Shown here piece by piece: positions 35,775-50,952 of a stretch of DNA of 51,509 nucleotides. How positions within the stretch are numbered: the stretch's first letter is position 1; every line of letters starts with the position of its first letter. Under the pieces are notes generated by a model. That model was not told the DNA's origin. It saw only the letters and a list, made by a program, of their open reading frames with translations, and ran no database searches. The position numbers and the translations under genes were made by a program. Source of the DNA: Nannocystaceae bacterium (GTDB lineage: Bacteria; Myxococcota_A; Polyangia; Nannocystales; Nannocystaceae); the NCBI GenBank assembly GCA_035550195.1, contig DASZPU010000873.1, positions 1-51,509 on the forward strand, given 5' to 3'.

Positions 35775-37256
35775 ATGGACGAGCTCAGCGTAGCCGACAC
35801 GGGCATTCCAGGATTGGACGACATCTTGGGCGGTGGGCTGCCGCGCGGCCACTTGTATCTGCTCGTCGGTGAGCCGGGGGCGGGCAAGACCACGCTCGCG
35901 CTGCAGTTCCTGCTCGCCGGCGCGGCGCAGGGCGAGACGTGCTTGTACATCGCGCTCTCGGAGACGCGGCGCGAGCTCGACCAAGTCGCGGCGTCGCATG
36001 GTTGGCAGACCGATCGCTTGGCCATCCACGAGCTCACCACCGCCGAGCGCGCGCCGGAGGACGGCAGCCCGCTCTTCGATCCCGGTGAGCTCGATCTGCA
36101 CGAGACCACGAGCACGTTGCTCGCGGCGGTCGAGCGACTGCGGCCCACTCGCGTCGTCTTCGACTCGTTGGCCGAGCTGCGCATGCTCGCGCCGAGCGCC
36201 CAACGTTATCGCCGTCAGGTGTTGGGCCTGCGCGACTACTTCATCGGTCGCAACACCACCGTCCTGCTCATCGACGACGAGCGCAGCGAGTCGACCGACA
36301 TGCAGCTGCGCACGGTGGCGCACGGCGTGCTCGCGCTCGAGCTGCTCACTCCGGACTATGGCGTCGATCGTCGACGACTGCGCATCGCGAAGCTGCGCGG
36401 CGTGAAATATCGCGCCGGCAACCACGACTTCGTGATCGAGCGGGGCGGGCTGACCGTGTTCCCGCGCTTGGTCGCCTCCGAGCACCACACGCCATTCGCG
36501 AGCGAGCCGGCATCGAGCGGGATCACCGAGCTCGATCAGCTGGTCGGCGGTGGCTTCGATCGCGGCACCAGCACGCTCTTGCTCGGGCCGGCGGGCAGCG
36601 GCAAGTCGGCGATCGCGAGCGCGTGCGCGCTGGCGGCCGCGCAGCGTGGCGAGCGGCCGGCGCTGTATCTGTTCGACGAGAACCGGCGCACGTTCCTCAT
36701 GCGCTCGCGCTCGCTGGGTATGGAGTTCGATCGCCAGCTCGAGCGCGGCGCGCTCACGCTGCGGCAGGTCGATCCGGCCGAGCTCTCACCCGGCGAGCTC
36801 GCGGCCGCGCTCCGTCAGCAGGTCGAAGAGCAAGGCTGTCGCTTCGTGATGATCGACAGCCTCAACGGCTATCTCACCGCGATGCCGGGCGAGCGCTACC
36901 TCGTGATCCAGATGCACGAGCTGCTCATGTACATGGCGCAGCGCGGCGTCACCACGTTCCTCGTCGTCGCGCAGCACGGGCTGCTCGACGCATCGAGTGC
37001 ACCGGTCGATCTCACCTATCTCGCCGATACGGTGTTGTGCACGCGCTACTTCGAGGCGCGTGGCGAGGTGCGCAAGGCCGTGTCCGTGCTGAAGAAGCGC
37101 TCGGGTCGGCACGAGAACTCGATCCGCGAGCTGCGACTCGGTGCAGACGGTGTGTCGGTGGGCGCCCCGCTCACCGGATTCCATGGCGTGATGACCGGCG
37201 TGCCTCGCATCGTCGGTGCCGCGCGTACGAGCTCCCGCGATGAGCCGACCGAATGA
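35775..37256 (+). CDS. kaiC: KaiC-like double RecA-domain ATPase
   Basis: Two KaiC/RecA-type halves with Walker A GEPGAGKT and GPAGSGKS, plus GIPGLDDILGGGLPRG and GITELDQLVGGGFDRG openings. Confidence 0.88.
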   Translation: MDELSVADTGIPGLDDILGGGLPRGHLYLLVGEPGAGKTTLALQFLLAGAAQGETCLYIALSETRRELDQVAASHGWQTDRLAIHELTTAERAPEDGSPLFDPGELDLHETTSTLLAAVERLRPTRVVFDSLAELRMLAPSAQRYRRQVLGLRDYFIGRNTTVLLIDDERSESTDMQLRTVAHGVLALELLTPDYGVDRRRLRIAKLRGVKYRAGNHDFVIERGGLTVFPRLVASEHHTPFASEPASSGITELDQLVGGGFDRGTSTLLLGPAGSGKSAIASACALAAAQRGERPALYLFDENRRTFLMRSRSLGMEFDRQLERGALTLRQVDPAELSPGELAAALRQQVEEQGCRFVMIDSLNGYLTAMPGERYLVIQMHELLMYMAQRGVTTFLVVAQHGLLDASSAPVDLTYLADTVLCTRYFEARGEVRKAVSVLKKRSGRHENSIRELRLGADGVSVGAPLTGFHGVMTGVPRIVGAARTSSRDEPTE

Positions 37257-38742
37257 CGACGAGCGCGTGATCGTGTGGGCGCCGCGCGGGCGCGACGGCT
37301 CGCTCGCCGTCACGATCCTCGCGGGCGCGGGGCTCGTCGCCGAGTCCGTGCCCGACATCGAGGCGCTGCTCACCGCGATCGACGAAGGCGTCGGCTGCGT
37401 GATGGTGACCGAGGAGACGCTCACGAGCGCCGTGACGCGAGGCCTCGTGCAGAAGCTGTCGCGGCAGCCGCCCTGGTCCGATCTGCCGCTGCTCGTGTTC
37501 GCGAACCCGGCCCCGCGCATGCGTGCGATCGCCGATGCCAGCAGTCCGCTCGGCAACGTCACGTACCTCGAGCGTCCGGTGCAGATCCGTACGTTGCTCG
37601 CGAGCGTGCGCTCGGCGTTGCGCGGGCGTCGACGCCAGTACGCTGCGCGTGCAGCCATCACCCAACGCGACGAGTTCCTCGCGATGCTCGGACACGAGCT
37701 GCGCAACCCGTTGGCCGCGATCGTGCTCGCCAGCGATCTGCTCGGCGATGCGGCCGAGGGCGAGCACTCGCGCGAGCGCGGGATCATCCTGCGTCAGGCT
37801 CGTCACCTCTCGCGGTTGGTCGACGATCTCCTCGACGTGTCGCGCGTGACCAGTGGCAAGGTGGTGCTGCGGCGCGAGCTGATCGATCTCGTCGAGCTCG
37901 CGCAGCGTTGTGTCGAGCAGAATCTCGCCGCGGCGGAGGCCAAGCGTCAACACTTGCGCTTCGTCGCGGCCACGAGTGCGGTCTTCGTCGATGGCGACGC
38001 GGTGCGCCTCGAGCAGGTGCTTAGCAACTTGCTCACCAACGCGATCAAGTACACGCCGAGCGAGGGGCACGTCGACGTGACGATCGGCATCGAGGCCGGC
38101 GAAGCCGTGCTGCGCGTGCGCGACGACGGCATCGGCATCGATCCCGCGATGACGCAGGCGATCTTCGAGCTGTTCGCACAGGCGCCGGCATCGTTGGATC
38201 GCAGCGAAGGCGGGCTCGGGCTCGGGCTCACGCTCGTGCGCACGCTGGTGCAGCTGCACGGCGGCACCGTGAGCGCGCGCAGCGACGGCGTGGGGCGGGG
38301 CGCGGAGCTCGAGGTGCGGCTGGCCGCGCGTCCGGAGCCGCGAACGAACGCGACGCCGACGCAGCTACGCGATGCGCTGCTGCCGTTGTCGGTCGTGCTC
38401 GTCGACGACAACGCCGACATGGTCGAGCTGCTCGCCGACGTGTTGCGCACCGCGGGTCATCGCGTCGAAGCGGCGTGCGACGGCCCGGCCGGGCTCGCGC
38501 GCATCTTGGCGGTGCGGCCCGACGTCGCGATCGTCGACATCGGATTGCCGGGGCTCGACGGCTTCACGCTCGCGCGACGCGTGCGCGAGCAGCTCGGTCG
38601 CGACATCCGTCTGGTCGCGATCACCGGCTACGGTCAGCCCGAAGATCGCGAAGGCACGCGCCAAGCCGGCTACGACGAGCACCTCGTGAAGCCTGCGACG
38701 CCCGAGCAAGTGCTCGCATCACTGTCGGGCAGCGCACTTTAG
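37240..38742 (+). CDS. Hybrid sensor histidine kinase: N-terminal pseudo-receiver, HisKA, HATPase_c, C-terminal receiver
   Basis: H-box HELRNPL, N-box LLTNAIKYT, DDGIGI, GGLGLGL. C-terminal REC: VLVDDN..IVDIGLPGLDG..LVKP. ATG 37240 overlaps kaiC by 17 nt. Confidence 0.9.
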   Translation: MSRPNDDERVIVWAPRGRDGSLAVTILAGAGLVAESVPDIEALLTAIDEGVGCVMVTEETLTSAVTRGLVQKLSRQPPWSDLPLLVFANPAPRMRAIADASSPLGNVTYLERPVQIRTLLASVRSALRGRRRQYAARAAITQRDEFLAMLGHELRNPLAAIVLASDLLGDAAEGEHSRERGIILRQARHLSRLVDDLLDVSRVTSGKVVLRRELIDLVELAQRCVEQNLAAAEAKRQHLRFVAATSAVFVDGDAVRLEQVLSNLLTNAIKYTPSEGHVDVTIGIEAGEAVLRVRDDGIGIDPAMTQAIFELFAQAPASLDRSEGGLGLGLTLVRTLVQLHGGTVSARSDGVGRGAELEVRLAARPEPRTNATPTQLRDALLPLSVVLVDDNADMVELLADVLRTAGHRVEAACDGPAGLARILAVRPDVAIVDIGLPGLDGFTLARRVREQLGRDIRLVAITGYGQPEDREGTRQAGYDEHLVKPATPEQVLASLSGSAL

Positions 38743-39407: not shown

Positions 39408-39515
39408 GGTACGCGCGGACACGGCCGTGGTTACAACCGTCGTTGCGCGGTCGCGCGCGCGTGACGTGAGCGCCGGTCGGGCTTGCGTCCGGCGTCGCTG
39501 TGGCATCATGCAGAC

Positions 39516-41123
39516 GTGGCTTCGCAGCGTACGCGCACGATCCTGATCACCCTCGCGATCACCATGGCGCCGGCAGTGGCGCTCGCCGATCCGCCCTACG
39601 CGGACGAGCTCACGCCGGGCACGCTGCGCGGCATCACGTACGACGCCGGCGATGCGTGGCAGCTCGGCTACTGGGAGTACCTGCCCAGCAACTATGATTC
39701 GCTCGGCGACGACGAGCTGTTACCGCTGCTCGTGTTCTTGCCCGGCATCGGCGAGTACGACGACGTCTCGGCGTGCCCCGGTGGCGCCGACACGTGCGCC
39801 GACACGGACTGCGGCAACGATGGGTTGTGCCGCAATCTGACCTGGGGTCCGCAGGGGCTCATCCGCAACGCACAGTGGGACGACACGCTGCGTCCGTTCA
39901 TCATCGTGTCGCCGCAGAACCCGGTGCCGCCGGGCTCGACGATCGAGTGGGATCTCGACGCGCTCGACGGATTCTTCCAGTACGTCATCGACAACTATCC
40001 CGTCGATCCGCGCCGGCTCTACCTCACCGGCATGAGCCAAGGTGGACGCGGCACGTTGCAGTACGTCGCCGAGCATCCGCGCCGCTTCGCCGCGGCCGCG
40101 TCGATGCCCGGTGGCATCGTGCAACCGGCGGTGAGCTGCACGTTCCAAGACACTGCGTTCTGGTGGTTCCACGGCGAGGACGACAACGACGGCCATCTCG
40201 GGCCCGGCGTGTTCAATCCGTGCGCGATGGTCGAGCTCGCGTCGATGTACGACAACCCGTCGGGCTATCCGCAGTATCCCGATTGCGTCGCAGCGGTCGG
40301 ACAGCCGCGCCCCGACGGACGCATGACGATGTTCTACGACGTGCCGCACTCGTCGTGGATCAACGCGATCGATCCGATCAACGTCGGCTTCCCCGGCGCC
40401 GAATGGGCCAGCGATCAGGGCTGCGGCATCGACATCGAGTTCCGCGAGTACAGCGCGGCCAACGACAGCGACGGCCTCTACAGCTGGTTCTTGTCGATCG
40501 ATCGCCCCGACGTGATCGCACCCGACGATCTCGACGTGCCGGGCGACGGTGCGGATCTCGATCTCGAAGCGACCATCGTCGACGACGATGCAGTGGCGTT
40601 CACCTGGACGCAGCTCGACGGGCCGGCGGTGACGTTGATGAACGACGACGCGCAGACGGTGACGATCTCCGGGCTTCTGCCCGAGACCGCGTACACGTTC
40701 CAGGTGTACGCGCTCGATGCCGACAACCAGTGGGATCTCGACGAGGTCGTGGTGAATGTCGGCGAGGCGCCGCCGCCGGGCACGAGCAGCAGCAGCGGGA
40801 GCAGCGAGGGCGGGTCGACCGACAGCAGCGACGCGAGCAGCGGCAACGCGAGCGCAGACGAAAGCGGCAGCGCCAGCGGGAGCGCGAGCGAGAGCGGGAG
40901 CGCGAGCGAGAGCGGCAGCGCGAGTGGCAGCGCGAGTGGCAGCGCGAGCGCGAGCGCCACCGCTGGCACGGTCGGCGACGCGAGTGCCGAAGGCAGCGAC
41001 AGCAGCGGCAGCGAAGGCACGGGCGAGAACGAAGACGCGTCGGGCTGCGCATGCGCTGCGAGCCCGCGCAGTGCTGGCTTCGCGTGGTTGCTCGTGCTCG
41101 CACCGCTCGTGCGTCGCCGTCGA

Positions 41124-41138
<15 letters not shown>
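39516..41138 (+). CDS. Secreted alpha/beta hydrolase (esterase/depolymerase-like) with Ig-like domain, S/G/A/E repeat linker and MYXO-CTERM tail
   Basis: LLVFLPGIGE, nucleophile elbow GMSQGG, WWFHGEDD. C-terminal GCACAASPRSAGFAWLLVLAPLVRRRR. GTG 39516 is preferred over the track start 39483. Confidence 0.75.
40863..40957 (+). repeat. Coding imperfect tandem repeat (18-nt and 12-nt units) encoding (SGSASE/SGSA)n
   Basis: AGCGGGAGCGCGAGCGAG x2, then AGCGGCAGCGCGAGTGGCAGCGCGAGTGGCAGCGCGAGCGCGAGC. Confidence 0.8.
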
Positions 41139-44138
<3,000 letters not shown>

Positions 44139-44157
44139 GTCGGCGATTGTAGGCGCT

Positions 44158-44709
44158 CTAGCGCTTCGCCGCCTTCTTCTTCGCGGCGGGCTTCTTCGCG
44201 GCGGGCTTCTTCGCGACCGGCTTTTTCTTCGCGGCGGGCTTCTTCGCGGCGGGGCGCTTTGCCGCAGCGACCTTCGGCTTCGCGGCGGGCGGCTTCGCGA
44301 CCTTCTGCGGCGCAGCCGACTTCGTGACGCGCGGGCCTTCGCGATCGAGCTGCGCCACCAACTTCTTCGGCGCCTGCGCGCGATAGCTCTCGTCGATCCA
44401 CGCCTTCAGCATCTCGACGTCGGGCAGCTCGCCGTCGTCGAACTTCGCCGACACCCATCCGCTCTTGCCGAGCCCGTACGGCGTCGGCTGCGTGTTGGGC
44501 AGCATCAACGCCGCCGCGCACGAGTGCGGCAGCTTGCAGCCGATGCCGAGCGGCTCGCCTTCGAGGCTGAGGTACGCGAACGTCTTGTCCTTCACCGCGA
44601 GATCGAGGTGACCCGGCCACGGGCTCTTCGTGTGCGCGCCGGGATACGCGAGCCCGAACGCGCGGAGCTCTTTCAGGATCGCATCGGTGGGGGCGGACTT
44701 GCGGGCCAC
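44158..44709 (-). CDS. MmcQ/YjbR family DNA-binding protein with histone-H1-like AKKP-repeat tail
   Basis: The N-terminal ~125 aa match the YjbR pattern (LRAFGLAYPGA..KTFAYL..LGKSGWV). The C-terminal ~55 aa are (P)AAKK repeats. Confidence 0.75.
   Translation of the reverse strand: MARKSAPTDAILKELRAFGLAYPGAHTKSPWPGHLDLAVKDKTFAYLSLEGEPLGIGCKLPHSCAAALMLPNTQPTPYGLGKSGWVSAKFDDGELPDVEMLKAWIDESYRAQAPKKLVAQLDREGPRVTKSAAPQKVAKPPAAKPKVAAAKRPAAKKPAAKKKPVAKKPAAKKPAAKKKAAKR
44176..44254 (-). repeat. Coding 15-nt tandem repeat (CTTCTTCGCGGCGGG on + strand, about 5 units)
   Basis: Two perfect units followed by three diverged ones; they encode PAAKK units of the H1-like tail. Confidence 0.8.
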
Positions 44710-44726
44710 GCCGGAAGTCTACGCGA

Positions 44727-46091
44727 TCAGCGGACGACGAGCGCGATCCAGGCGTCGTCCATCGCCGGCTCTCCGCCATCGGGGAGCACGCCGCACAACG
44801 CGATGGCTTCGCCGGCCTCGTCGAGCGCGATGCTGCGTGGCACCGCAGCTCCGACGTCGAGCGTGGTCGACCACACGATCTCGAGCTGGTCGTCGACTTC
44901 GATCAGCATCAACGTGGTCGCATCGACGCGCGCCGCCAAGACGGCCCCTTCGCCGACCGTGGTGATCGCATGGCAGGTGGCGTCGCCGTCGAGCGCGTGG
45001 GTCTGGCCCGCGGTCTCGTCGAGGCTCGCGGCGACGCGTCCGAGCTGCAGCGCACGCGGGCTGGCGGTGTCGCTGCTGCCGCACGTCCAGGTGCGGCCGC
45101 TGCCGTCGACCGCGATGACCACCGTCGCCGCGCTCGCACCGAGATCGTAGGTCGCCGGCGGATCGACGATCGTGCCCTCGAAGGCCGACAGCGACAGCGG
45201 ATTGGGCGTGCCGCTGAAGTGACGCTCGAGCCCACGCAGTCGTGCGCCGCCGTGATCGAAGCCTTCGATGAGCACACCCGGGTCGATGCCCATGCTCTCC
45301 GCGGAGAACGCCGGCTCGGGATACTGATCGAGCGGCAGCGCGCCATACCACGCGCGATAGGCCCCATCGAGATACACGTTGGCTGCGAGCACGAGATCGT
45401 TGCCCGTCGTCGAAACGCCGACGAAACCCGACAGCCGCATGTCGTCGTGCCAGGTGAGCTCTTGCTCGAGCCCGCTCACGCCACCCGCGGTGAAGCGCTT
45501 CGCCCAACCATCGCCGGCGACCAAGCCGATGTTGTTGTGGATGCCGACCGCGACGAACTCCTGCGCGTCGATCCATGCGAGCGCACGAAAGCCGCTGCTG
45601 GTGTCGTCGTCGTCGTCGAAGCGCCACGCGGGCGTGCCCTCGCGATCGAAGGCTTCGACCCAGCCGTTGTACACGTCGGGCGCCTCGCTGAGATCGCCGA
45701 CGACGATCACGTGCTCGCGCAGCGACACCGCGTAGCAGTCGTCGCGCAGACCCGGCATGCCGAGGGTTTGCGTCCACAGCAGCGTGCCGGTGACGCGACA
45801 CGCCGAGCAACCATCGCCGGGCACGTCGTTGCCGTCGTCGCAGTCTTCGTCGGGGCCGACCATCATGTCGCCGCAGCCCGGTGCGTCCGCGGTGGTGTCG
45901 ACCGACTCGCTGCCGTCGTCGGTGCTGGTGGGCAGGCCGCTGGTTTCGGTCGCCGTCGTCGCGCTCGCAGTCGCGGTGCTGCTGCTCTCCGCGTGCGTGG
46001 TGCCGTGATCGTCCGCGCCGCTCTCGTCGACGTCGTCCTCGCTGAAGCACGCGGCGACCAGCAAGCACGCGCCGAGGCACGAACGCTTCAC
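44727..46091 (-). CDS. Lipoprotein with one Myxococcus cysteine-rich repeat (DUF4215-type), hypothetical
   Basis: GTG 46091 gives VKRSCLGACLLVAAC lipobox. CGDMMVGPDEDCDDGNDVPGDGCSAC matches the CGDG..ECDDGN..GDGCs..C repeat. Internal start in track ORF 44727..46322. Confidence 0.7.
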   Translation of the reverse strand: MKRSCLGACLLVAACFSEDDVDESGADDHGTTHAESSSTATASATTATETSGLPTSTDDGSESVDTTADAPGCGDMMVGPDEDCDDGNDVPGDGCSACRVTGTLLWTQTLGMPGLRDDCYAVSLREHVIVVGDLSEAPDVYNGWVEAFDREGTPAWRFDDDDDTSSGFRALAWIDAQEFVAVGIHNNIGLVAGDGWAKRFTAGGVSGLEQELTWHDDMRLSGFVGVSTTGNDLVLAANVYLDGAYRAWYGALPLDQYPEPAFSAESMGIDPGVLIEGFDHGGARLRGLERHFSGTPNPLSLSAFEGTIVDPPATYDLGASAATVVIAVDGSGRTWTCGSSDTASPRALQLGRVAASLDETAGQTHALDGDATCHAITTVGEGAVLAARVDATTLMLIEVDDQLEIVWSTTLDVGAAVPRSIALDEAGEAIALCGVLPDGGEPAMDDAWIALVVR

Positions 46092-46110
46092 GTGGCCGAG
46101 GATAGCGCAG

Positions 46111-47595
46111 TCACGTCGGCGGCGTGATGCGGAGCTGCACATGGATCGCGGGCACCGCCGCGGTGCCGTGCCAGCGCTGCTCGGCCCAGCGCAGGTCTCC
46201 GCTCGCGACCACGTCGACGACCTCGAGCTCCCACGCGCCCAGCGTGAAGCCTTCGCCCTGCGTCGTGGGAACGATCGCACGCGAGAGGTACATGCTCTCG
46301 GATTCCGCCGAGAGCTGCGCATCGGTGACGCCGGGGTAGATGCGCAGCCGCAGCGGCGACTGCTCGCCGACCGTGATCTGGTTGCGACCTGCCGAGCTCA
46401 TCCACACCAGCGTGGGGGCCGACGGCGTCGCGATCGTGAGCGTCGGGTCGCACGCGAGCTGCATCCGACGCACACGCACCTCGCCGTCGCTGTCCGCGTC
46501 GCCGCGCAACAGCGAAGCGCCGACCACCTCGACGCGCGAGTCGAATCCGCTGGCACTGAACATCATCGATGACGATGTGTCGGGGTCGTCCGACGAGATG
46601 TCGAGACGAAGATCGATCGGCATGTCCTCGGGCGGCTGCACCAGCGCGAGCGCGAGCTTGCCGGCCTTGGCCGTCTCGCCGGGCGACAGATGCAGATCGT
46701 CGACCACCGGTGCACCGGCCGCGAGCACTGCAGGCAGCGTCGTGCGTTGCGGGCTGGGATCGCCGCAGCCGATCGCGGGCACCGGCGCCGTCGCGATCGA
46801 CTTCGGGGCCGGCTCGATGTGCAGGCGCGCGTGCACCTTGTCTCCGGCCGCGATGATCTCGTCGATCACCACCACACGCGCAGCGACGCGGATGCGCCGC
46901 TTCGCCGCGGTGCGAGCGGGGATCGCATACTGGTAGCCGAGCGTCGACAGCTCGAGCATGAGCTCGGCCGGCCGCGCCACCATCGCGGCGATCACCATCT
47001 CGCCGGTCGTGTCGAAGGCCTGCACCGCGATCGCTTCGGTGCTGAGCCAGAACGAGCGCGACTCGTCGGTGGCCGCGATGTCGGCGTGATCGGGGCACGC
47101 GTTCTTGCGCACGACTGCAGTCACCTCGGGCTCGTCACCGTCGCCGACCTTCGTCGCGATGTGATACGGGCCGAGCACGAACGTCTCTTCGCGCTTCGGA
47201 TCGATCGCCACGTCGTGGCCCCACGCGGCGCCCTTGGCTTCGGCTTGTTCGATCAGCACCTTCAGCGCGGCGCCACGATGACCGCTGCCGCGCGAACCGA
47301 TCCACGCGTGCTCGTCGTACGCGAGCGACACGGTACCGATCGTCTTGGTCTCGCCGGGGCGCACGGTCGCGGTGCCGACCTGCACCATCCCTTCCTTTAA
47401 CAGTGGGGGCAGGGCGGTCGGCTCGCGCCCCGCTTCGCCGCAGCGGCGATCGGCGGGAAGCTCCGGCGGCGGCGCGGGCTCGGGCGCCGCGACGGTCGGG
47501 GTCGCGACCGGCGTGTCGACCGGCGCTTCGTCGCGCGGACGATCGCACGCAGCGATCGCGAGTACGAGAGCGAGCGCGCTGCGTTCGTTGCTCAT
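46111..47595 (-). CDS. Hypothetical lipoprotein with two homologous halves
   Basis: Lipobox LAIAAC. Halves open with CGEAGREPTALPPLLKEG...RPGETKTIGTVSLA and CGDPSPQRTTLPAVLAAG...SPGETAKAGKLALA. ATGA overlap with the upstream gene. Confidence 0.7.
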   Translation of the reverse strand: MSNERSALALVLAIAACDRPRDEAPVDTPVATPTVAAPEPAPPPELPADRRCGEAGREPTALPPLLKEGMVQVGTATVRPGETKTIGTVSLAYDEHAWIGSRGSGHRGAALKVLIEQAEAKGAAWGHDVAIDPKREETFVLGPYHIATKVGDGDEPEVTAVVRKNACPDHADIAATDESRSFWLSTEAIAVQAFDTTGEMVIAAMVARPAELMLELSTLGYQYAIPARTAAKRRIRVAARVVVIDEIIAAGDKVHARLHIEPAPKSIATAPVPAIGCGDPSPQRTTLPAVLAAGAPVVDDLHLSPGETAKAGKLALALVQPPEDMPIDLRLDISSDDPDTSSSMMFSASGFDSRVEVVGASLLRGDADSDGEVRVRRMQLACDPTLTIATPSAPTLVWMSSAGRNQITVGEQSPLRLRIYPGVTDAQLSAESESMYLSRAIVPTTQGEGFTLGAWELEVVDVVASGDLRWAEQRWHGTAAVPAIHVQLRITPPT

Positions 47596-49040
47596 GGGCG
47601 GCGCAACACGAACAGACGTGCCGAAGGCGCACCCTCGGGACCGGGCAGCGTGCTCGCACGATCGCTGGCGATCGTGAACGCGTCACCGACGAGCGCGGCC
47701 AAGCGCGCGGCGTCGTAGGGCTGGGTCGCGCGGCCATTCGCACCGGCGTCGTCGAACGTCTTCAACACGATCGTACCACCGGGCGCGACCAGCCGCGTCA
47801 TCGCAGCGACCCAGCGCGCGGCGTCGCCCGGGGCGAGTAGATGCAGACAGCCGCGATCGATCACGAGCTCGAAGCGCGCATGCAGTCGCGTCGCCGTGAT
47901 GTCGTCCTGCAGCCACACCACGCCCTGCTCGTCGGGACAGCGCGCGAGCGCAGCGGCCGACACGTCGGTCGCGATCACACGATGACCCGCGCGCGCACAC
48001 GCGACCGCGATCGTGCCGAGCCCGGTGCCGACGTCGAGCACGCTCGCACCCGCATGCGCGCGCACGACGGCCATGATGTCGTCGTCGGGCTCGGCCACGT
48101 GCCACGGCAGCTCCGCCTCGGGGCGGCGATAGATCGCATCCCAGTCGCCGGCATCGTGCGGCGCGTGGCGGATGCCGCGGGCGAGCAGCACCGCCTCGAG
48201 CAGCTGCACGACGGTGCCCCACGGCGGCGCCGCGCCGATCATCGGCACACGCTCGGGTGGCGCATCGGCGACCTCGACACCACCGGCCGCGTGCACGACG
48301 TGCATGCCGTCGGCGACGAGCTGCGCCACGTTGCGCTGCACGGCCGCGCTCGCGAGCATCGCTCCGTTCATCGACGGCACGATCACCACCGGCGCGCGCG
48401 TGGCCAACGCGACCGCGGAGACGATCGATCCGTGATCGCCGGTGGCGATGCGCGAGATCGTGGTGGCCGACGCGGGACACACCAGCACGACGTCGGCCCA
48501 CTGCGCGAGGTCGATGTGGGGCACGTGCGACGCATCGCCCGTCGGCCACAGCTCGTCGACGACGCGATGGTGCGTGAGCGCTTCGAACGGCTCGGTGCGC
48601 ACGAATCGGAGCGCTTCCGAGGTCGCGGCCACGCGCACTTGGTGGCGACGTTCGAGCAAGCGCTGCACGAGCATCGGCGTGTGCATCGTCGCGACCGCTC
48701 CGGTGACACCGAGCACGACCCGCGGCCCCGGCACGTGCGGCACGGTGCGGTGGGACGGCGGTGCGACGCGCTCGATCGATCCGGTGCCGAGCAACAGCGC
48801 GAGCAGATCATCGAGCGCGCTGCCTTCGGGCAGCGGTGCGCCGGTGAGCTCCTCGATGTGCGCGACGATCTCGGCGCGGCGCTTCGGCCACTCGACGAAC
48901 GCGAGCACCTCGCGGGCGAGCGCAGCGGAGTCGCCGACGAGCTCGTGGCCCTGACCGTCGCGGCCGAGCACCACCATGCGATCGCCGACCTCGTAGATGC
49001 GGACTACGTTGCAGCGCCGCAGCTTCGCATCGTCGGCCAT
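47592..49040 (-). CDS. Tri-modular protein: PqqD-like RRE + HFCD/CoaC-type flavoprotein + class I SAM methyltransferase
   Basis: ATG 49040 (MADDAKLRR). HIDLAQWADVVLVCPASATTISRIATGDHGSIVSA and VPSMNGAM (flavoprotein). WDAIY..PW and VLDVGTGLG (methyltransferase). Internal start in track ORF 47592..49289. Confidence 0.8.
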   Translation of the reverse strand: MADDAKLRRCNVVRIYEVGDRMVVLGRDGQGHELVGDSAALAREVLAFVEWPKRRAEIVAHIEELTGAPLPEGSALDDLLALLLGTGSIERVAPPSHRTVPHVPGPRVVLGVTGAVATMHTPMLVQRLLERRHQVRVAATSEALRFVRTEPFEALTHHRVVDELWPTGDASHVPHIDLAQWADVVLVCPASATTISRIATGDHGSIVSAVALATRAPVVIVPSMNGAMLASAAVQRNVAQLVADGMHVVHAAGGVEVADAPPERVPMIGAAPPWGTVVQLLEAVLLARGIRHAPHDAGDWDAIYRRPEAELPWHVAEPDDDIMAVVRAHAGASVLDVGTGLGTIAVACARAGHRVIATDVSAAALARCPDEQGVVWLQDDITATRLHARFELVIDRGCLHLLAPGDAARWVAAMTRLVAPGGTIVLKTFDDAGANGRATQPYDAARLAALVGDAFTIASDRASTLPGPEGAPSARLFVLRRP

Positions 49041-49080
49041 CGTGCGGATGATACCGCTGTCACCGCCGCAGGGCCGCAGT

Positions 49081-50952
49081 ATGCTGCCGCCCATGCCGAC
49101 CCTCGGGCGTTCCACGATCGTCCTCATTGCGCTCGCGCTCGCCTGTGCGCCGCGCCGCGACGTCGCGACCACCACGCCGGAATCGCAGCCGACGAAGGCC
49201 GAGCCCACCGCGGTCGGCGAGCCGCGTGCCGCCGGCCCGAAGGTCTCCGACGATCCGATCATCTCGCGCATCGTCGAGCTCGGGCGCACCGAGTCGCAGG
49301 TGGACGATCACCTGAAGCACTTCACCAAGGTGATCGGTCCGCGGCTCACCGGATCGCACGCGCTGATGGTCGCGGAGAAGTGGGCGCGCGATCGCTTCGC
49401 CGCGTTCGGGCTGGACGCGAAGCTCGAGCGCTGGGGCGAGTTTCCCGTGGGCTTCGATCGCGGGCCGTGGTCGGGCGGGATGGTCGCGCCGCAGCAAGTG
49501 AAGTACGAGTTCACGACGCATGCGTGGACGCCGGGCGTGCTCGGTCCGGTGCGCGGCAAGGCGGTCGCATATCCGGCGAGCGCGAAGGAAGTCACCGCAG
49601 CCCCGACGAAGTTCGCGGGCGTCTGGGTCGTGCATCCGCCCGACGAGCCGCGCGGCGATGCGGCCGAGAAGGCGCGCGCGCCCATCGACGATGCGCTCTT
49701 CGCCGCGGGCGCGCTCGGCCACATCGATCGCGCGCGCGATGCCGGCGGCAAGCTGGTGCACACCGGTGGGCGCTACAAGATCGATTGGGCGAAGCTGCCG
49801 CGCGACGTGCACGTGAGCCTGCAAGGCGAGCAGCACGATGATCTCCGCAAGCGCATCGCTGCGGGCGAGCAGGTCGAGCTGGAGTTCTCGATCGACAACC
49901 GCTTCTTCCGTGGCCCGGTGCCGCAGCACAACGTGATCGCCGACCTCGTCGGCAGCGAGCTTCCCGACGAGTACGTGATCGTCGGCGGGCACATCGATTC
50001 GTGGGACGGCGCCGAAGGTGCGGTCGACAACGCCACGGGTTGCGCGACGACGATGGAGGCCGCGCGCTTGTTGGTCGCGGCCGGCGCGAAGCCGCGTCGC
50101 ACGATCCGCTTCATGCTGTGGAGCGGCGAAGAGCAGGGGTTGCTCGGCAGCGAGGCCTACGTCGCGCAGCACCCCGAGCTCACCGACAAGGTGAGCGCCG
50201 TGCTCGTGCACGACGGTGGCACGAACTTCCTCTCGGGTCTGCGCGTGACGCCGGAGATGGCCGAGGACATGAAGAAGGTCTTCGACCCGGTGATGAAGCT
50301 CGACCCCGAGCTGCCGTTCGCGCTGTGGTACGCGGACTCGCTGCGCGGTGGCGGCAGCGATCACAGCTCGTTCATCGCGAAGGGCGTCCCCGGTTTCTTC
50401 TGGGAGCAGGATGGCCGCGCCGACTACGAGCACTCGCACCACACGCAGTTCGATACGCTCGACTTCGCGATCCCCGAGTACCAGCGGCACTCCGCGATGG
50501 TGGTCGCGATCGCTGCGCTCGGGCTCGCGAACCTCGACAAGAAGCTCGATCGCACCGACAGCGCTGCGTTGCCGCGGCGGCAGTTCGGCGCCGATCTCGA
50601 GGACACGCGCGTCACCAAGCTCGACAAGGACGGCGCAGCCGCGAAGGCGGGTGTGAAGGTCGGTGACGAGGTGATCGAGGTCGAGGGCGCGAAGGGCTCG
50701 CGTCGCGAGATGTTCCGGCGCTTCATGTCCGAGGGCACCAAGAAGAAGATCGTGGTGCTGCGCAAGAAGAAGAAGCTCGAGCTCGTGCTCGACTTCAGCA
50801 ACGATCCGGCGGACGCCGAGCGCGACGCGCGACGTGAGCGACGCAACCAGAAGTTCGGACAGCTCGACTACGACAAGCCGTTCGCCGGCCGTGCGATCGA
50901 GAAGCCGAAGCGCGAGGACGGCAAGCCGGCTCCAGCGCCGCCGTCGAAGTGA
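49081..50952 (+). CDS. M28 family aminopeptidase lipoprotein with PA insert and C-terminal PDZ domain
   Basis: Lipobox LALAC. GGHIDSWDGAEGAVDNATG, WSGEEQGLLGS, GGGSDHSSF, HHTQFDT (zinc ligand motifs). PDZ-like KLDKDGAAAKAGVKVGDEVIEV. Confidence 0.85.
   Translation: MLPPMPTLGRSTIVLIALALACAPRRDVATTTPESQPTKAEPTAVGEPRAAGPKVSDDPIISRIVELGRTESQVDDHLKHFTKVIGPRLTGSHALMVAEKWARDRFAAFGLDAKLERWGEFPVGFDRGPWSGGMVAPQQVKYEFTTHAWTPGVLGPVRGKAVAYPASAKEVTAAPTKFAGVWVVHPPDEPRGDAAEKARAPIDDALFAAGALGHIDRARDAGGKLVHTGGRYKIDWAKLPRDVHVSLQGEQHDDLRKRIAAGEQVELEFSIDNRFFRGPVPQHNVIADLVGSELPDEYVIVGGHIDSWDGAEGAVDNATGCATTMEAARLLVAAGAKPRRTIRFMLWSGEEQGLLGSEAYVAQHPELTDKVSAVLVHDGGTNFLSGLRVTPEMAEDMKKVFDPVMKLDPELPFALWYADSLRGGGSDHSSFIAKGVPGFFWEQDGRADYEHSHHTQFDTLDFAIPEYQRHSAMVVAIAALGLANLDKKLDRTDSAALPRRQFGADLEDTRVTKLDKDGAAAKAGVKVGDEVIEVEGAKGSRREMFRRFMSEGTKKKIVVLRKKKKLELVLDFSNDPADAERDARRERRNQKFGQLDYDKPFAGRAIEKPKREDGKPAPAPPSK

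Follow-up and report, generated by a model that had tools for sequence, protein, structure and literature searches.

This work concerns a gene for a three-domain enzyme on contig DASZPU010000873.1 of a Nannocystaceae bacterium (assembly GCA_035550195.1). The stretch analyzed, positions 1 to 51,509 of the contig, has a G+C content of about 69% and is called the window below. The gene encodes a protein in which a domain with the predicted fold of a RiPP recognition element (RRE; RiPP, a peptide that is ribosomally synthesized and then modified post-translationally) precedes a flavoprotein domain of the HFCD family and an S-adenosylmethionine (SAM)-dependent methyltransferase domain. In many related genomes, the corresponding gene is accompanied by a small open reading frame (ORF) with a conserved leader-like N-terminus. 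The gene and its parts are as follows (aa, amino acids).

47592..49040, minus strand: three-domain enzyme gene (RRE, HFCD flavoprotein, SAM methyltransferase), 482 aa, stop codon included in the coordinates.
48756..49040, minus strand (residues 1-95): RRE/PqqD-like winged-helix domain, presumed leader-peptide binding module, from an AlphaFold2 model and Foldseek.
48171..48728, minus strand (residues ~105-290): flavin mononucleotide (FMN)-dependent cysteine-decarboxylase-type domain of the HFCD family, from PF02441 and from PDB sequence and structure matches.
47595..48155, minus strand (residues ~296-482): class I SAM methyltransferase, TPMT-like, from Pfam and from PDB sequence and structure matches.

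Translation from the ATG at position 49040 gives the N-terminus MADDAKLRR and matches the N-termini of the orthologues. A longer frame reaches position 49289, but it runs antisense into a divergent gene for an M28 peptidase. The protein is without a signal peptide. In the AlphaFold2 model of the full-length enzyme (pLDDT 86, pTM 0.51), the linker between the domains and the substrate clamp of the flavoprotein domain are of low confidence.

A preliminary description of this DNA had proposed that one protein joins the three domains. The flavoprotein and methyltransferase domains are recognized by Pfam, NCBIfam and PDB comparisons, and the RRE only by its predicted structure. The possibility that the fusion is a frameshift or assembly artefact was checked with a word-indexed search, which returned more than 120 full-length homologues of 475-510 aa and 49-93% identity with the same architecture; the fusion is genuine. 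These homologues, in Nannocystis and other Nannocystaceae, carry no other NCBI names than "flavoprotein" or "methyltransferase domain-containing protein". When 45 orthologues including the window's protein were aligned, the catalytic His and Asn, SAM motif I and the RRE residues discussed below were found to be invariant or nearly so.

A predicted RRE fold at the N-terminus

Residues 1-100 were modelled with AlphaFold2 together with 36 orthologous segments. The resulting model (pLDDT 89, pTM 0.79) has four short beta strands, three helices and a last strand, and thus contains the three-stranded sheet followed by three helices of a winged helix. When the model was compared with the PDB using Foldseek, the top match was TbiB1 with its leader bound (5v1v; E 7.5e-4, probability 1.0, TM 0.56/0.61), followed in order by ThcOx, TigE, MibB, McbB, PqqD (5sxy), MadB, the RRE of PbtF with its bound peptide, MccB and TbtB. 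Because at least ten different RRE-containing proteins stand within the top 20 matches (TM of the best, 0.56-0.64), the modelled domain is an RRE by fold. The PqqD/RRE pattern that had been claimed for residues ~1-95 is therefore right as to fold, sequence profiles being silent on the point. The near-invariant residues H32 and L34 lie on the strand 31-35, and L79, L82 and L83 on the helix 75-86, a site that we take to be the one where known RREs dock the leader strand.

The flavoprotein and methyltransferase domains

The HFCD/CoaC domain previously placed at residues ~110-275 is found by Pfam as PF02441 (Flavoprotein) at residues 107-250, with an E value of 1.7e-24 and 86.7 bits against a cut-off of 22.7. 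Its motifs VPHIDLAQWAD, PASATT and PSMNGAM are invariant or nearly so among the 45 orthologues. H175 (in VPHIDL) and N225 (in PSMNGAM) do not vary at all, and they align with the corresponding motifs of CoaBC, SpaF and PPCDC. From the EpiD/Dfp literature, we take H175 to be the catalytic His, equivalent to EpiD H67 and Dfp H75, and N225 to be the Asn of PxMNxxM. The substrate clamp, G-x-E-V-A-D-x-P-x-x-R-x-x-x-L-G-x-A-P-P, is strongly conserved in the orthologue alignment and contains no Cys, so that the product would be expected to stay an enethiol.

At the sequence level the domain matches 13 HFCD entries in the PDB, headed by Mycobacterium smegmatis CoaBC (6tgv, 1e-19), SpaF (7cfu, 1e-18), TvaF (6jls, 1e-17) and human PPCDC (1qzu, 4e-16), with MrsD, EpiD and CypD ranking after PPCDC. 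The identity of 7cfu as SpaF was confirmed (10.1101/2020.08.21.260323). The domain is thus about equally close to CoaBC, to the thioamitide peptide decarboxylases SpaF and TvaF, and to human PPCDC. Structural matches comprise CoaBC, SpaF, TvaF, AtHAL3a and MrsD, with TM to target of 0.84-0.87 for SpaF, TvaF and MrsD. A model for the RiPP decarboxylase CypD is among the weaker NCBIfam matches.

The class I methyltransferase earlier assigned to residues ~300-482 is likewise present. It matches Methyltransf_25 at residues 334-422 (E 1.6e-12, 48 bits versus a cut-off of 27), and Methyltransf_11, Methyltransf_12 and Methyltransf_23 also match the C-terminal domain. TPMT (PF05724) matches residues 296-458 at 30-34 bits versus 26 (E 5e-7 with the whole protein, 3e-8 with the isolated domain). 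The motifs include W300...W313, VLDxGTGxG and DRGCLHL; motif I reads VLDVGTGLG in the window's protein, and its G338, G340 and G342 are invariant among the 45 orthologues. PDB sequence matches are Rv0560c, YtkW, Ecm18 (4nec), a thiol methyltransferase (9h0d) and a halide methyltransferase (8ajp); structural matches are Ecm18, Rv0560c, halide and thiol methyltransferases, TehB and CypM. The nearest structural relatives therefore include enzymes that act on sulfur, halide or tellurium (Ecm18, the halide/thiol methyltransferases and TehB). By analogy, this leaning towards soft nucleophiles suggests a thiol sulfur as the acceptor. The likeness to TPMT-like thiol/halide methyltransferases and Ecm18 lies in a Pfam TPMT match that covers the whole domain above the cut-off and in structural similarity, which extends to TehB. 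However, identities are only 19-25%, and the non-thiol methyltransferases Rv0560c and CypM score similarly, so that the acceptor atom cannot be read from the relatives.

A myxobacterial family with two architectures

A scan of one genome per species yielded 265 loci (numbered with the prefix L below), of which 80 were retained; all 80 encode the three domains. Nannocystis, Enhygromyxa, Polyangiaceae, Kofleriaceae, Haliangiales, Sandaracinaceae and related metagenome-assembled genomes (MAGs) account for them, the exceptions being two short contigs binned elsewhere. The family is almost entirely confined to Myxococcota, mainly to the class Polyangia. Since L050 and L068 are two copies of the enzyme gene on different contigs of one Kofleriaceae MAG (DASUFX01), a single genome can hold more than one member of the family.

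A profile of the RRE domain gave only 122 matches among 1.84 billion representative proteins. By length, these divide into proteins of ~470-510 aa, fragments that are shorter, and a class of 285-310 aa that recurs. Five proteins of this last class were read (P0125, P0140, P0164, P0192 and P0213), and all five are RRE-HFCD proteins that end just past the flavoprotein domain. The existence of this sister architecture makes the methyltransferase an accessory module. Among the RRE-profile matches that were read, none joins the family's RRE to another kind of enzyme.

A small leader-bearing ORF beside the enzyme

Flanking ORFs (±4 kb) from 77 distinct loci were clustered by all-against-all BLAST. 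The genomic contexts of the enzyme gene vary widely between genomes and, across the 77 loci, no neighbour is conserved family-wide, with the exception of a small ORF of 45-150 aa lying directly beside the enzyme gene, mostly upstream on the same strand. This ORF is present at 54 of the ~73 loci with flanks long enough to judge (about three quarters). Four groups of small ORFs adjoin the enzyme gene; BLAST does not link them to one another, and an N-terminal motif is common to all.

Group 1: 83-aa type, ten loci.
Group 2: 72-82-aa type, Kofleriaceae and Haliangiales, ending in CPAGCxPxG or similar.
Group 3: 140-aa type, Nannocystis.
Group 4: 96-aa type, ending in CHEPFT.

The shared motif of the leaders, an example of which is KRRLRIPAALAVT, is [KR][KR]-L-x-[IVL]-P-x-[AV]-L-[AST]-[VF]-[TSAV], followed by a hydrophobic stretch and a lipobox-like [GAS]-Cys end. 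In all 30 aligned leaders, G, A or S precedes the Cys, and a basic n-region and a hydrophobic h-region lie ahead of it. Past the lipobox Cys comes a hypervariable, usually Cys-rich part of 20-130 aa. From these features, the small ORFs likely encode pre-lipoproteins of the signal peptidase II (SPII) type.

The linkage of this motif to the enzyme is exclusive. The leading 23 columns of the alignment were made into a hidden Markov model (HMM), with which 18,855 stop-to-stop segments from 86 loci with ±10 kb flanks were searched. At E<0.2 there are 54 matches, none of them farther than ~1 kb from the enzyme gene and most immediately adjacent to it; ~20 of them come from outside the training set. 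Matches beyond this threshold are noise at random distances. A crude regular expression gave 32 near and 6 far matches despite 2.6x more far sequence, and a lipobox expression recovers more divergent partner ORFs. In total there are 60 candidate precursors at 54 distinct loci, or ~63 when separately examined loci (L087, L088/L089, L090) are included. Tandem copies occur at L042 (three) and at L035, L041 and L077 (two each). An orthologue of 61% identity to the window's enzyme, on another contig, has a Nannocystis-type ORF of 158 aa directly upstream. Two RRE-HFCD enzymes that lack the methyltransferase (L088:5001-5885 and L090:5001-5909) each have a leader-bearing small ORF directly upstream as well. 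At Kofleriaceae loci, the enzyme gene and the small ORF sit between purA, hisS-like and NIF3 genes; surrounded by housekeeping genes, the pair behaves as a self-contained two-gene cassette. No multinuclear non-heme iron-dependent oxidative enzyme (MNIO) or other RiPP enzyme was found near the Kofleriaceae cassettes inspected. The argument of the preliminary description, that an RRE implies a peptide substrate, is thus borne out at orthologous loci by an adjacent small ORF with a conserved leader-like N-terminus.

Some further regularities were seen at the C-termini. About half of the candidates end in Pro, a hydrophobic and a small residue (RPIG, TPVG, EPVA, EPFT, VPIV, APVT, TPII, FPVL; for instance L055:9725-9946, L064:2960-3184, L038, L043, L015, L041 and L042), their cores being unrelated, and in the Cys-rich types a Cys stands 5-7 residues from the end (C-x-P-Phi-x). 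This ending might be a signal, common to these candidates, for recognition of the C-terminus or for trimming. Other candidates end in, or close to, CxC or CC (CYC, CFC, GCC; CECLA, CECIS, CCQCFIA), at L035:2591-3594 (two ORFs), L047:487-807, L049:771-1070, L090:4766-5017, L051, L053 and L088:4630-4947. The single GCC-ended example goes with an enzyme without a methyltransferase and the CxC-ended ones with enzymes that have it, numbers too small to build on. The split recalls the rule for Rab proteins, in which CXC ends are methylated and CC ends are not.

Tails of the CPAGCxPxG kind (L055:9725-9946, L069:11388-11705, L075:10592-10840) resemble the MNIO-modified CPxCGxG of ChrA and DybA (PMC13056109). 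An MNIO as the enzyme behind such tails was rejected, as no MNIO gene lies beside them. Also set aside was a match of the signal-peptide region of the small ORF L003:9707-9958 to the "lipo-invert" C-terminal anchoring domain NF058595 (E 0.003, 17.7 bits versus a cut-off of 37), which was judged to reflect hydrophobic, lipobox-like sequence and is probably compositional; nothing on the "lipo-invert" family was found in the literature.

Gene neighbours in the window

The genes next to the enzyme gene in the window are the following.

46111..47595, minus strand: predicted lipoprotein of 494 aa that starts MSNERSALALVLAIAAC and ends ITPPT, with no Pfam or NCBIfam domain; context rather than a conserved partner.
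41124..46091, minus strand: lipoprotein with DUF4215/myxobacterial Cys-rich repeats, YjbR-family protein, and Ser/Thr kinase with TPR repeats (Pfam); not linked to the enzyme family.
49081..50952, plus strand, divergent: M28 peptidase with a PDZ domain and a lipoprotein-type signal (Peptidase_M28, E 5e-36); its start codon was chosen by inspecting the translation.

The translational coupling of the enzyme gene to the gene for the 494-aa lipoprotein was confirmed as an ATGA stop/start overlap. In the orthologous loci, the 494-aa lipoprotein lies downstream in L004 (93% identity to the window's enzyme), is displaced by ~1.9 kb in L006 (76%) and is absent in L086 (70%). Considered as an enlarged precursor, it was rejected, since the leader motif does not match it and the loci do not keep it in the same place. 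The five-gene, kinase-ended operon of the preliminary description consists of co-directional genes; it is conserved only in the 93% relative and broken at 76% and 70%, and it therefore says little about function.

The lipoprotein at 44727-46322 (minus strand), which adjoins the 494-aa lipoprotein downstream of the enzyme, has a Thr/Ser-rich linker and a DUF4215/myxobacterial Cys-rich acidic repeat. The 140-aa Nannocystis precursors (L001:9529-9951) are likewise laid out as a Thr-rich linker with a Cys-rich module; the leader motif is absent from 44727-46322. On the other side, the divergent M28-PDZ peptidase gene (reading frame 48997-50952) adjoins the enzyme gene in L004, L006 and L086. Its conservation there is limited to the clade of the window, where every member without the small ORF has it. 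Hydrophobic tails at the C-terminus are what PDZ domains read, and a link of this peptidase to the missing precursor or to its trimming is conceivable.

The remaining genes of the window are ordinary for a myxobacterium: Ser/Thr kinases, TetR/HlyD, TrkH, a KaiC-like ATPase with a hybrid histidine kinase, MsrA and glutathione peroxidase. No CoaB, dehydratase, cyclase or MNIO is encoded in the window. At 35775-38742 (plus strand), a KaiC-like double-domain ATPase (NCBIfam KaiC, 255 bits, below the cut-off) is followed by an overlapping hybrid histidine kinase/response regulator, in what looks like a KaiC-based signalling pair. At 39483-41138 (plus strand) lies an esterase/polyhydroxybutyrate-depolymerase-like protein with a PKD domain, long Ser/Gly/Ala-rich repeats and the C-terminal tail GCACAASPRSAGFAWLLVLAPLVRRRR; this tail looks like a MYXO-CTERM (myxosortase) sorting signal, and there are weak NCBIfam matches to myxosortase-dependent families.

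Proposed function and alternatives

Their genetic linkage to the enzyme makes the leader-bearing small pre-lipoproteins its likely cognate substrates, and we favour, with moderate confidence, the view that the enzyme is an uncharacterized cytoplasmic, RRE-guided tailoring enzyme for lipoprotein-type RiPP precursors. In the chemistry that we propose, the RRE would bind the conserved N-terminal motif of the precursor before its export. The HFCD domain, using FMN, would oxidize a Cys thiol; with a C-terminal Cys as the target, this would amount to oxidative decarboxylation to a reactive enethiol. The fused TPMT-like methyltransferase would then trap or cap what results, S-methylation of the enethiol or of a thiol being the most plausible way. 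The modified peptide would be exported and lipidated via the normal lipoprotein pathway, following the logic of the MNIO-made DAG-RiPPs described below. Peptide enethiols are highly nucleophilic (PMC10989515), and thioenol products degrade spontaneously in buffer (10.1101/2020.08.21.260323).

A number of observations weigh against this view. Strict and relaxed regular expressions, the motif HMM and the lipobox expression found no short precursor-like ORF in the window, either beside the enzyme gene or elsewhere in the 51.5 kb. The preliminary description had seen no short Cys-terminated ORF beside the gene, and this holds for the rest of the window too. The closest relatives are also without a leader-bearing ORF beside the enzyme gene: L004 (93%), L006 (76%), L086 (70%), L005 (62%) and L032 (57%). 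The window's enzyme is an intact but orphan copy. It retains every conserved residue of the RRE and of the catalytic domains. It probably works, on a substrate whose gene lies in another part of the genome. Residues 1-106 gave no Pfam or NCBIfam match at E<=10, PF05402 (PqqD) and the RRE models included, and no PDB match with either the single sequence or a 36-sequence profile other than chance ones (timeless, sulfatase, cyanoglobin). To our knowledge, known LanD enzymes need no RRE. The best NCBIfam match of the enzyme is to the CoaC half of TIGR00521 (1e-40, model positions 5-154), and the ADxxPxRxP of its clamp resembles that of mycobacterial CoaC (ADSGPGRLP in M. smegmatis CoaBC). The lipobox of the small ORFs was identified by visual inspection only. 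As to the candidate precursors themselves, five of ~63 end in Cys (two at L035 and one each at L047, L049 and L090, with the ends CYC, CFC or GCC); many others have their last Cys 2-7 residues short of the end, and in at least seven the lipobox Cys is the only one.

Since most candidates do not end in Cys, canonical decarboxylation of a C-terminal Cys cannot explain all the pairs; either a trimming step, or a target residue that is not C-terminal, or a chemistry unlike that of LanD would be needed. The preliminary description had suggested a C-terminal peptide or protein modification system. The peptide partner is there at orthologous loci; the C-terminal cysteine chemistry remains our inference, because so few candidates have the appropriate end.

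The similarity to CoaC might instead point to small-molecule thiol metabolism, with an N-acyl-cysteine such as a pantothenoylcysteine analogue as the substrate, the RRE-like domain serving oligomerization or regulation, and the small lipoprotein being unrelated or regulatory. The highest profile score is with TIGR00521, the best PDB match is 6tgv, the clamp motifs are similar, the clamp is highly conserved though the precursor tails are hypervariable, and the closest solved relatives of the methyltransferase act on small molecules. However, the scores for TIGR00521 (140 bits versus 219.7) and TIGR02113 (79 versus 261) are both below the curated cut-offs, no CoaB is present, and SpaF (1e-18) and TvaF (1e-17) are nearly as close as CoaBC. 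An RRE fold together with an exclusive linkage to leader-bearing ORFs, at 54 loci and beside the methyltransferase-less sisters, would be hard to explain without a peptide partner, and we regard an involvement in small-molecule metabolism as quite unlikely. The more specific idea that similarity to CoaC models marks a housekeeping phosphopantothenoylcysteine decarboxylase for CoA synthesis was rejected as next to impossible. The C-terminal half is a methyltransferase, an extra RRE is conserved, the called genes of eleven loci include no DFP/CoaB domain and no cluster of neighbours corresponds to a conserved CoaB. The family also has a narrow taxonomic range and is present in two copies in some genomes (L050 and L068 of one MAG). 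The preliminary description had likewise set the protein apart from the housekeeping CoaBC.

The small lipoprotein could also be a partner and not a substrate, the RRE-like domain binding its signal peptide so as to control export or to switch the enzyme, and catalysis taking place elsewhere. Such a role would fit with universal features limited to the N-terminal motif and the lipobox Cys (tails are unrelated between clades, and some have no further Cys), and with a clamp that is conserved whatever the type of tail. Tandem small ORFs (L042, L035, L041, L077) and hypervariable cores are, however, the usual signature of precursor peptides, and several tails end in CxC or CC. We know of no precedent for an RRE in an export or regulatory role of this kind, and consider it unlikely here. 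Still less can be said for a local system in which the substrate is the coupled 494-aa lipoprotein, or the next, Cys-rich lipoprotein, and the kinase-ended five-gene unit works as a whole. The ATGA overlap indicates co-translation, the products of both genes have lipoprotein-type N-termini, and the ITPPT end of the 494-aa protein is reminiscent of the P-hydrophobic-x ends frequent in the small precursors; moreover, proteins above 30 kDa can be RiPP-type substrates (PMC13056109). However, the leader motif has no match in the 494-aa protein, the gene order is confined to the 93% relative, being interrupted at 76% and absent at 70%, and no member of the operon is a conserved neighbour across the 77 loci, all of which makes a local system improbable.

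Relation to known systems

As a tailoring enzyme for small pre-lipoproteins, the protein would have several partial precedents. With the LanD-type decarboxylases (EpiD, MrsD, CypD, TvaF, SpaF, MicD; E 1e-18 to 2e-4) it shares the HFCD fold, the catalytic His, the Asn of PxMNxxM and a clamp without Cys. Unlike it, the known LanD enzymes are stand-alone proteins that read the C-terminal residues of their precursors without an RRE and act with dehydratases and cyclases to make aminovinyl-cysteine (AviCys). The present family has an RRE and a methyltransferase fused to the decarboxylase-type domain, and most of its candidate precursors do not end in Cys. An AviCys partner, that is, an enzyme forming dehydroalanine or dehydrobutyrine or a cyclase, was found neither in the window, nor among the neighbours inspected with Pfam, nor as a conserved neighbour at the 77 loci. 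The CoaC part of CoaBC/Dfp, with the likenesses given above, differs in having no flanking RRE and methyltransferase and no linkage to peptide-like ORFs.

The N-terminal domain resembles known RREs (TbiB1 and PqqD, and the N-terminal ones of MibB, McbB, MccB and ThcOx) in its predicted beta-sheet and three-helix winged helix, and two of the top matches were solved with a leader. A further likeness is the ORF adjacent to the enzyme gene at orthologous loci, with its conserved N-terminal motif containing Pro and Leu. It differs from them in having no detectable sequence similarity to the PF05402 or NCBIfam RRE models, and in that the presumed leader overlaps a signal peptide.

The proposed export and lipidation have a direct precedent in the DAG-RiPPs, RiPP-lipoprotein hybrids exemplified by DybA/DybH and NedA/NedBC (PNAS 2026, PMC13056109). 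In these systems, MNIO enzymes modify precursors bearing SPII signals in the cytoplasm before processing by Lgt, Lsp and Lnt (PMC13056109). The common points are small SPII precursors with an invariant lipobox Cys (the SPII signals and lipidation being predictions in our case), a cytoplasmic enzyme without a signal peptide, a minimal cluster of one precursor and one enzyme, and Cys-rich motifs near the C-terminus. The enzymes differ: DAG-RiPPs depend on MNIO (DUF692) iron enzymes, whereas the present loci encode an RRE-HFCD flavoprotein, with or without the methyltransferase, and neither the window nor any Kofleriaceae cassette inspected contains an MNIO. The mining that defined the DAG-RiPPs covered MNIO families only, and flavoproteins, decarboxylases and RREs are not mentioned (PMC13056109).

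Significance

The RRE, HFCD and class I methyltransferase parts are each already known, and the logic of lipoprotein-type RiPPs has just been described. In the literature, we found no RRE-HFCD fusion, no HFCD-methyltransferase fusion and no precursor family of this kind with a leader motif embedded in the signal peptide. It seems possible, though we put this forward as a tentative and rather doubtful extension of the tailoring-enzyme proposal, that the enzymes and the pre-lipoproteins form an unrecognized, Myxococcota-specific class of lipoprotein-RiPPs. In such a class, the signal peptide would double as the leader read by the RRE, and a single fused enzyme would, ahead of export and lipidation, install a new Cys-derived modification; an S-methyl aminovinyl thioether at the C-terminus, formed by methyl-trapping of the enethiol, would be one example.

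If the proposed function is right, the family would provide the first RRE-guided HFCD enzyme and the first case of a decarboxylase-made enethiol handled by a fused methyltransferase instead of a cyclase, and lipoprotein-pathway RiPPs would extend from MNIO enzymes to flavoenzymes. The finding should interest specialists in RiPPs and in lipoproteins, with the caveat that the window holds the enzyme only. The compact two-gene cassette with its hypervariable cores would suit the engineering of surface-anchored modified peptides. The 23-column leader motif and the RRE profile retrieve the whole family cleanly and offer a handle for mining, and a functional context would be supplied for several hundred genes of myxobacteria whose present annotation is only "flavoprotein" or "methyltransferase".

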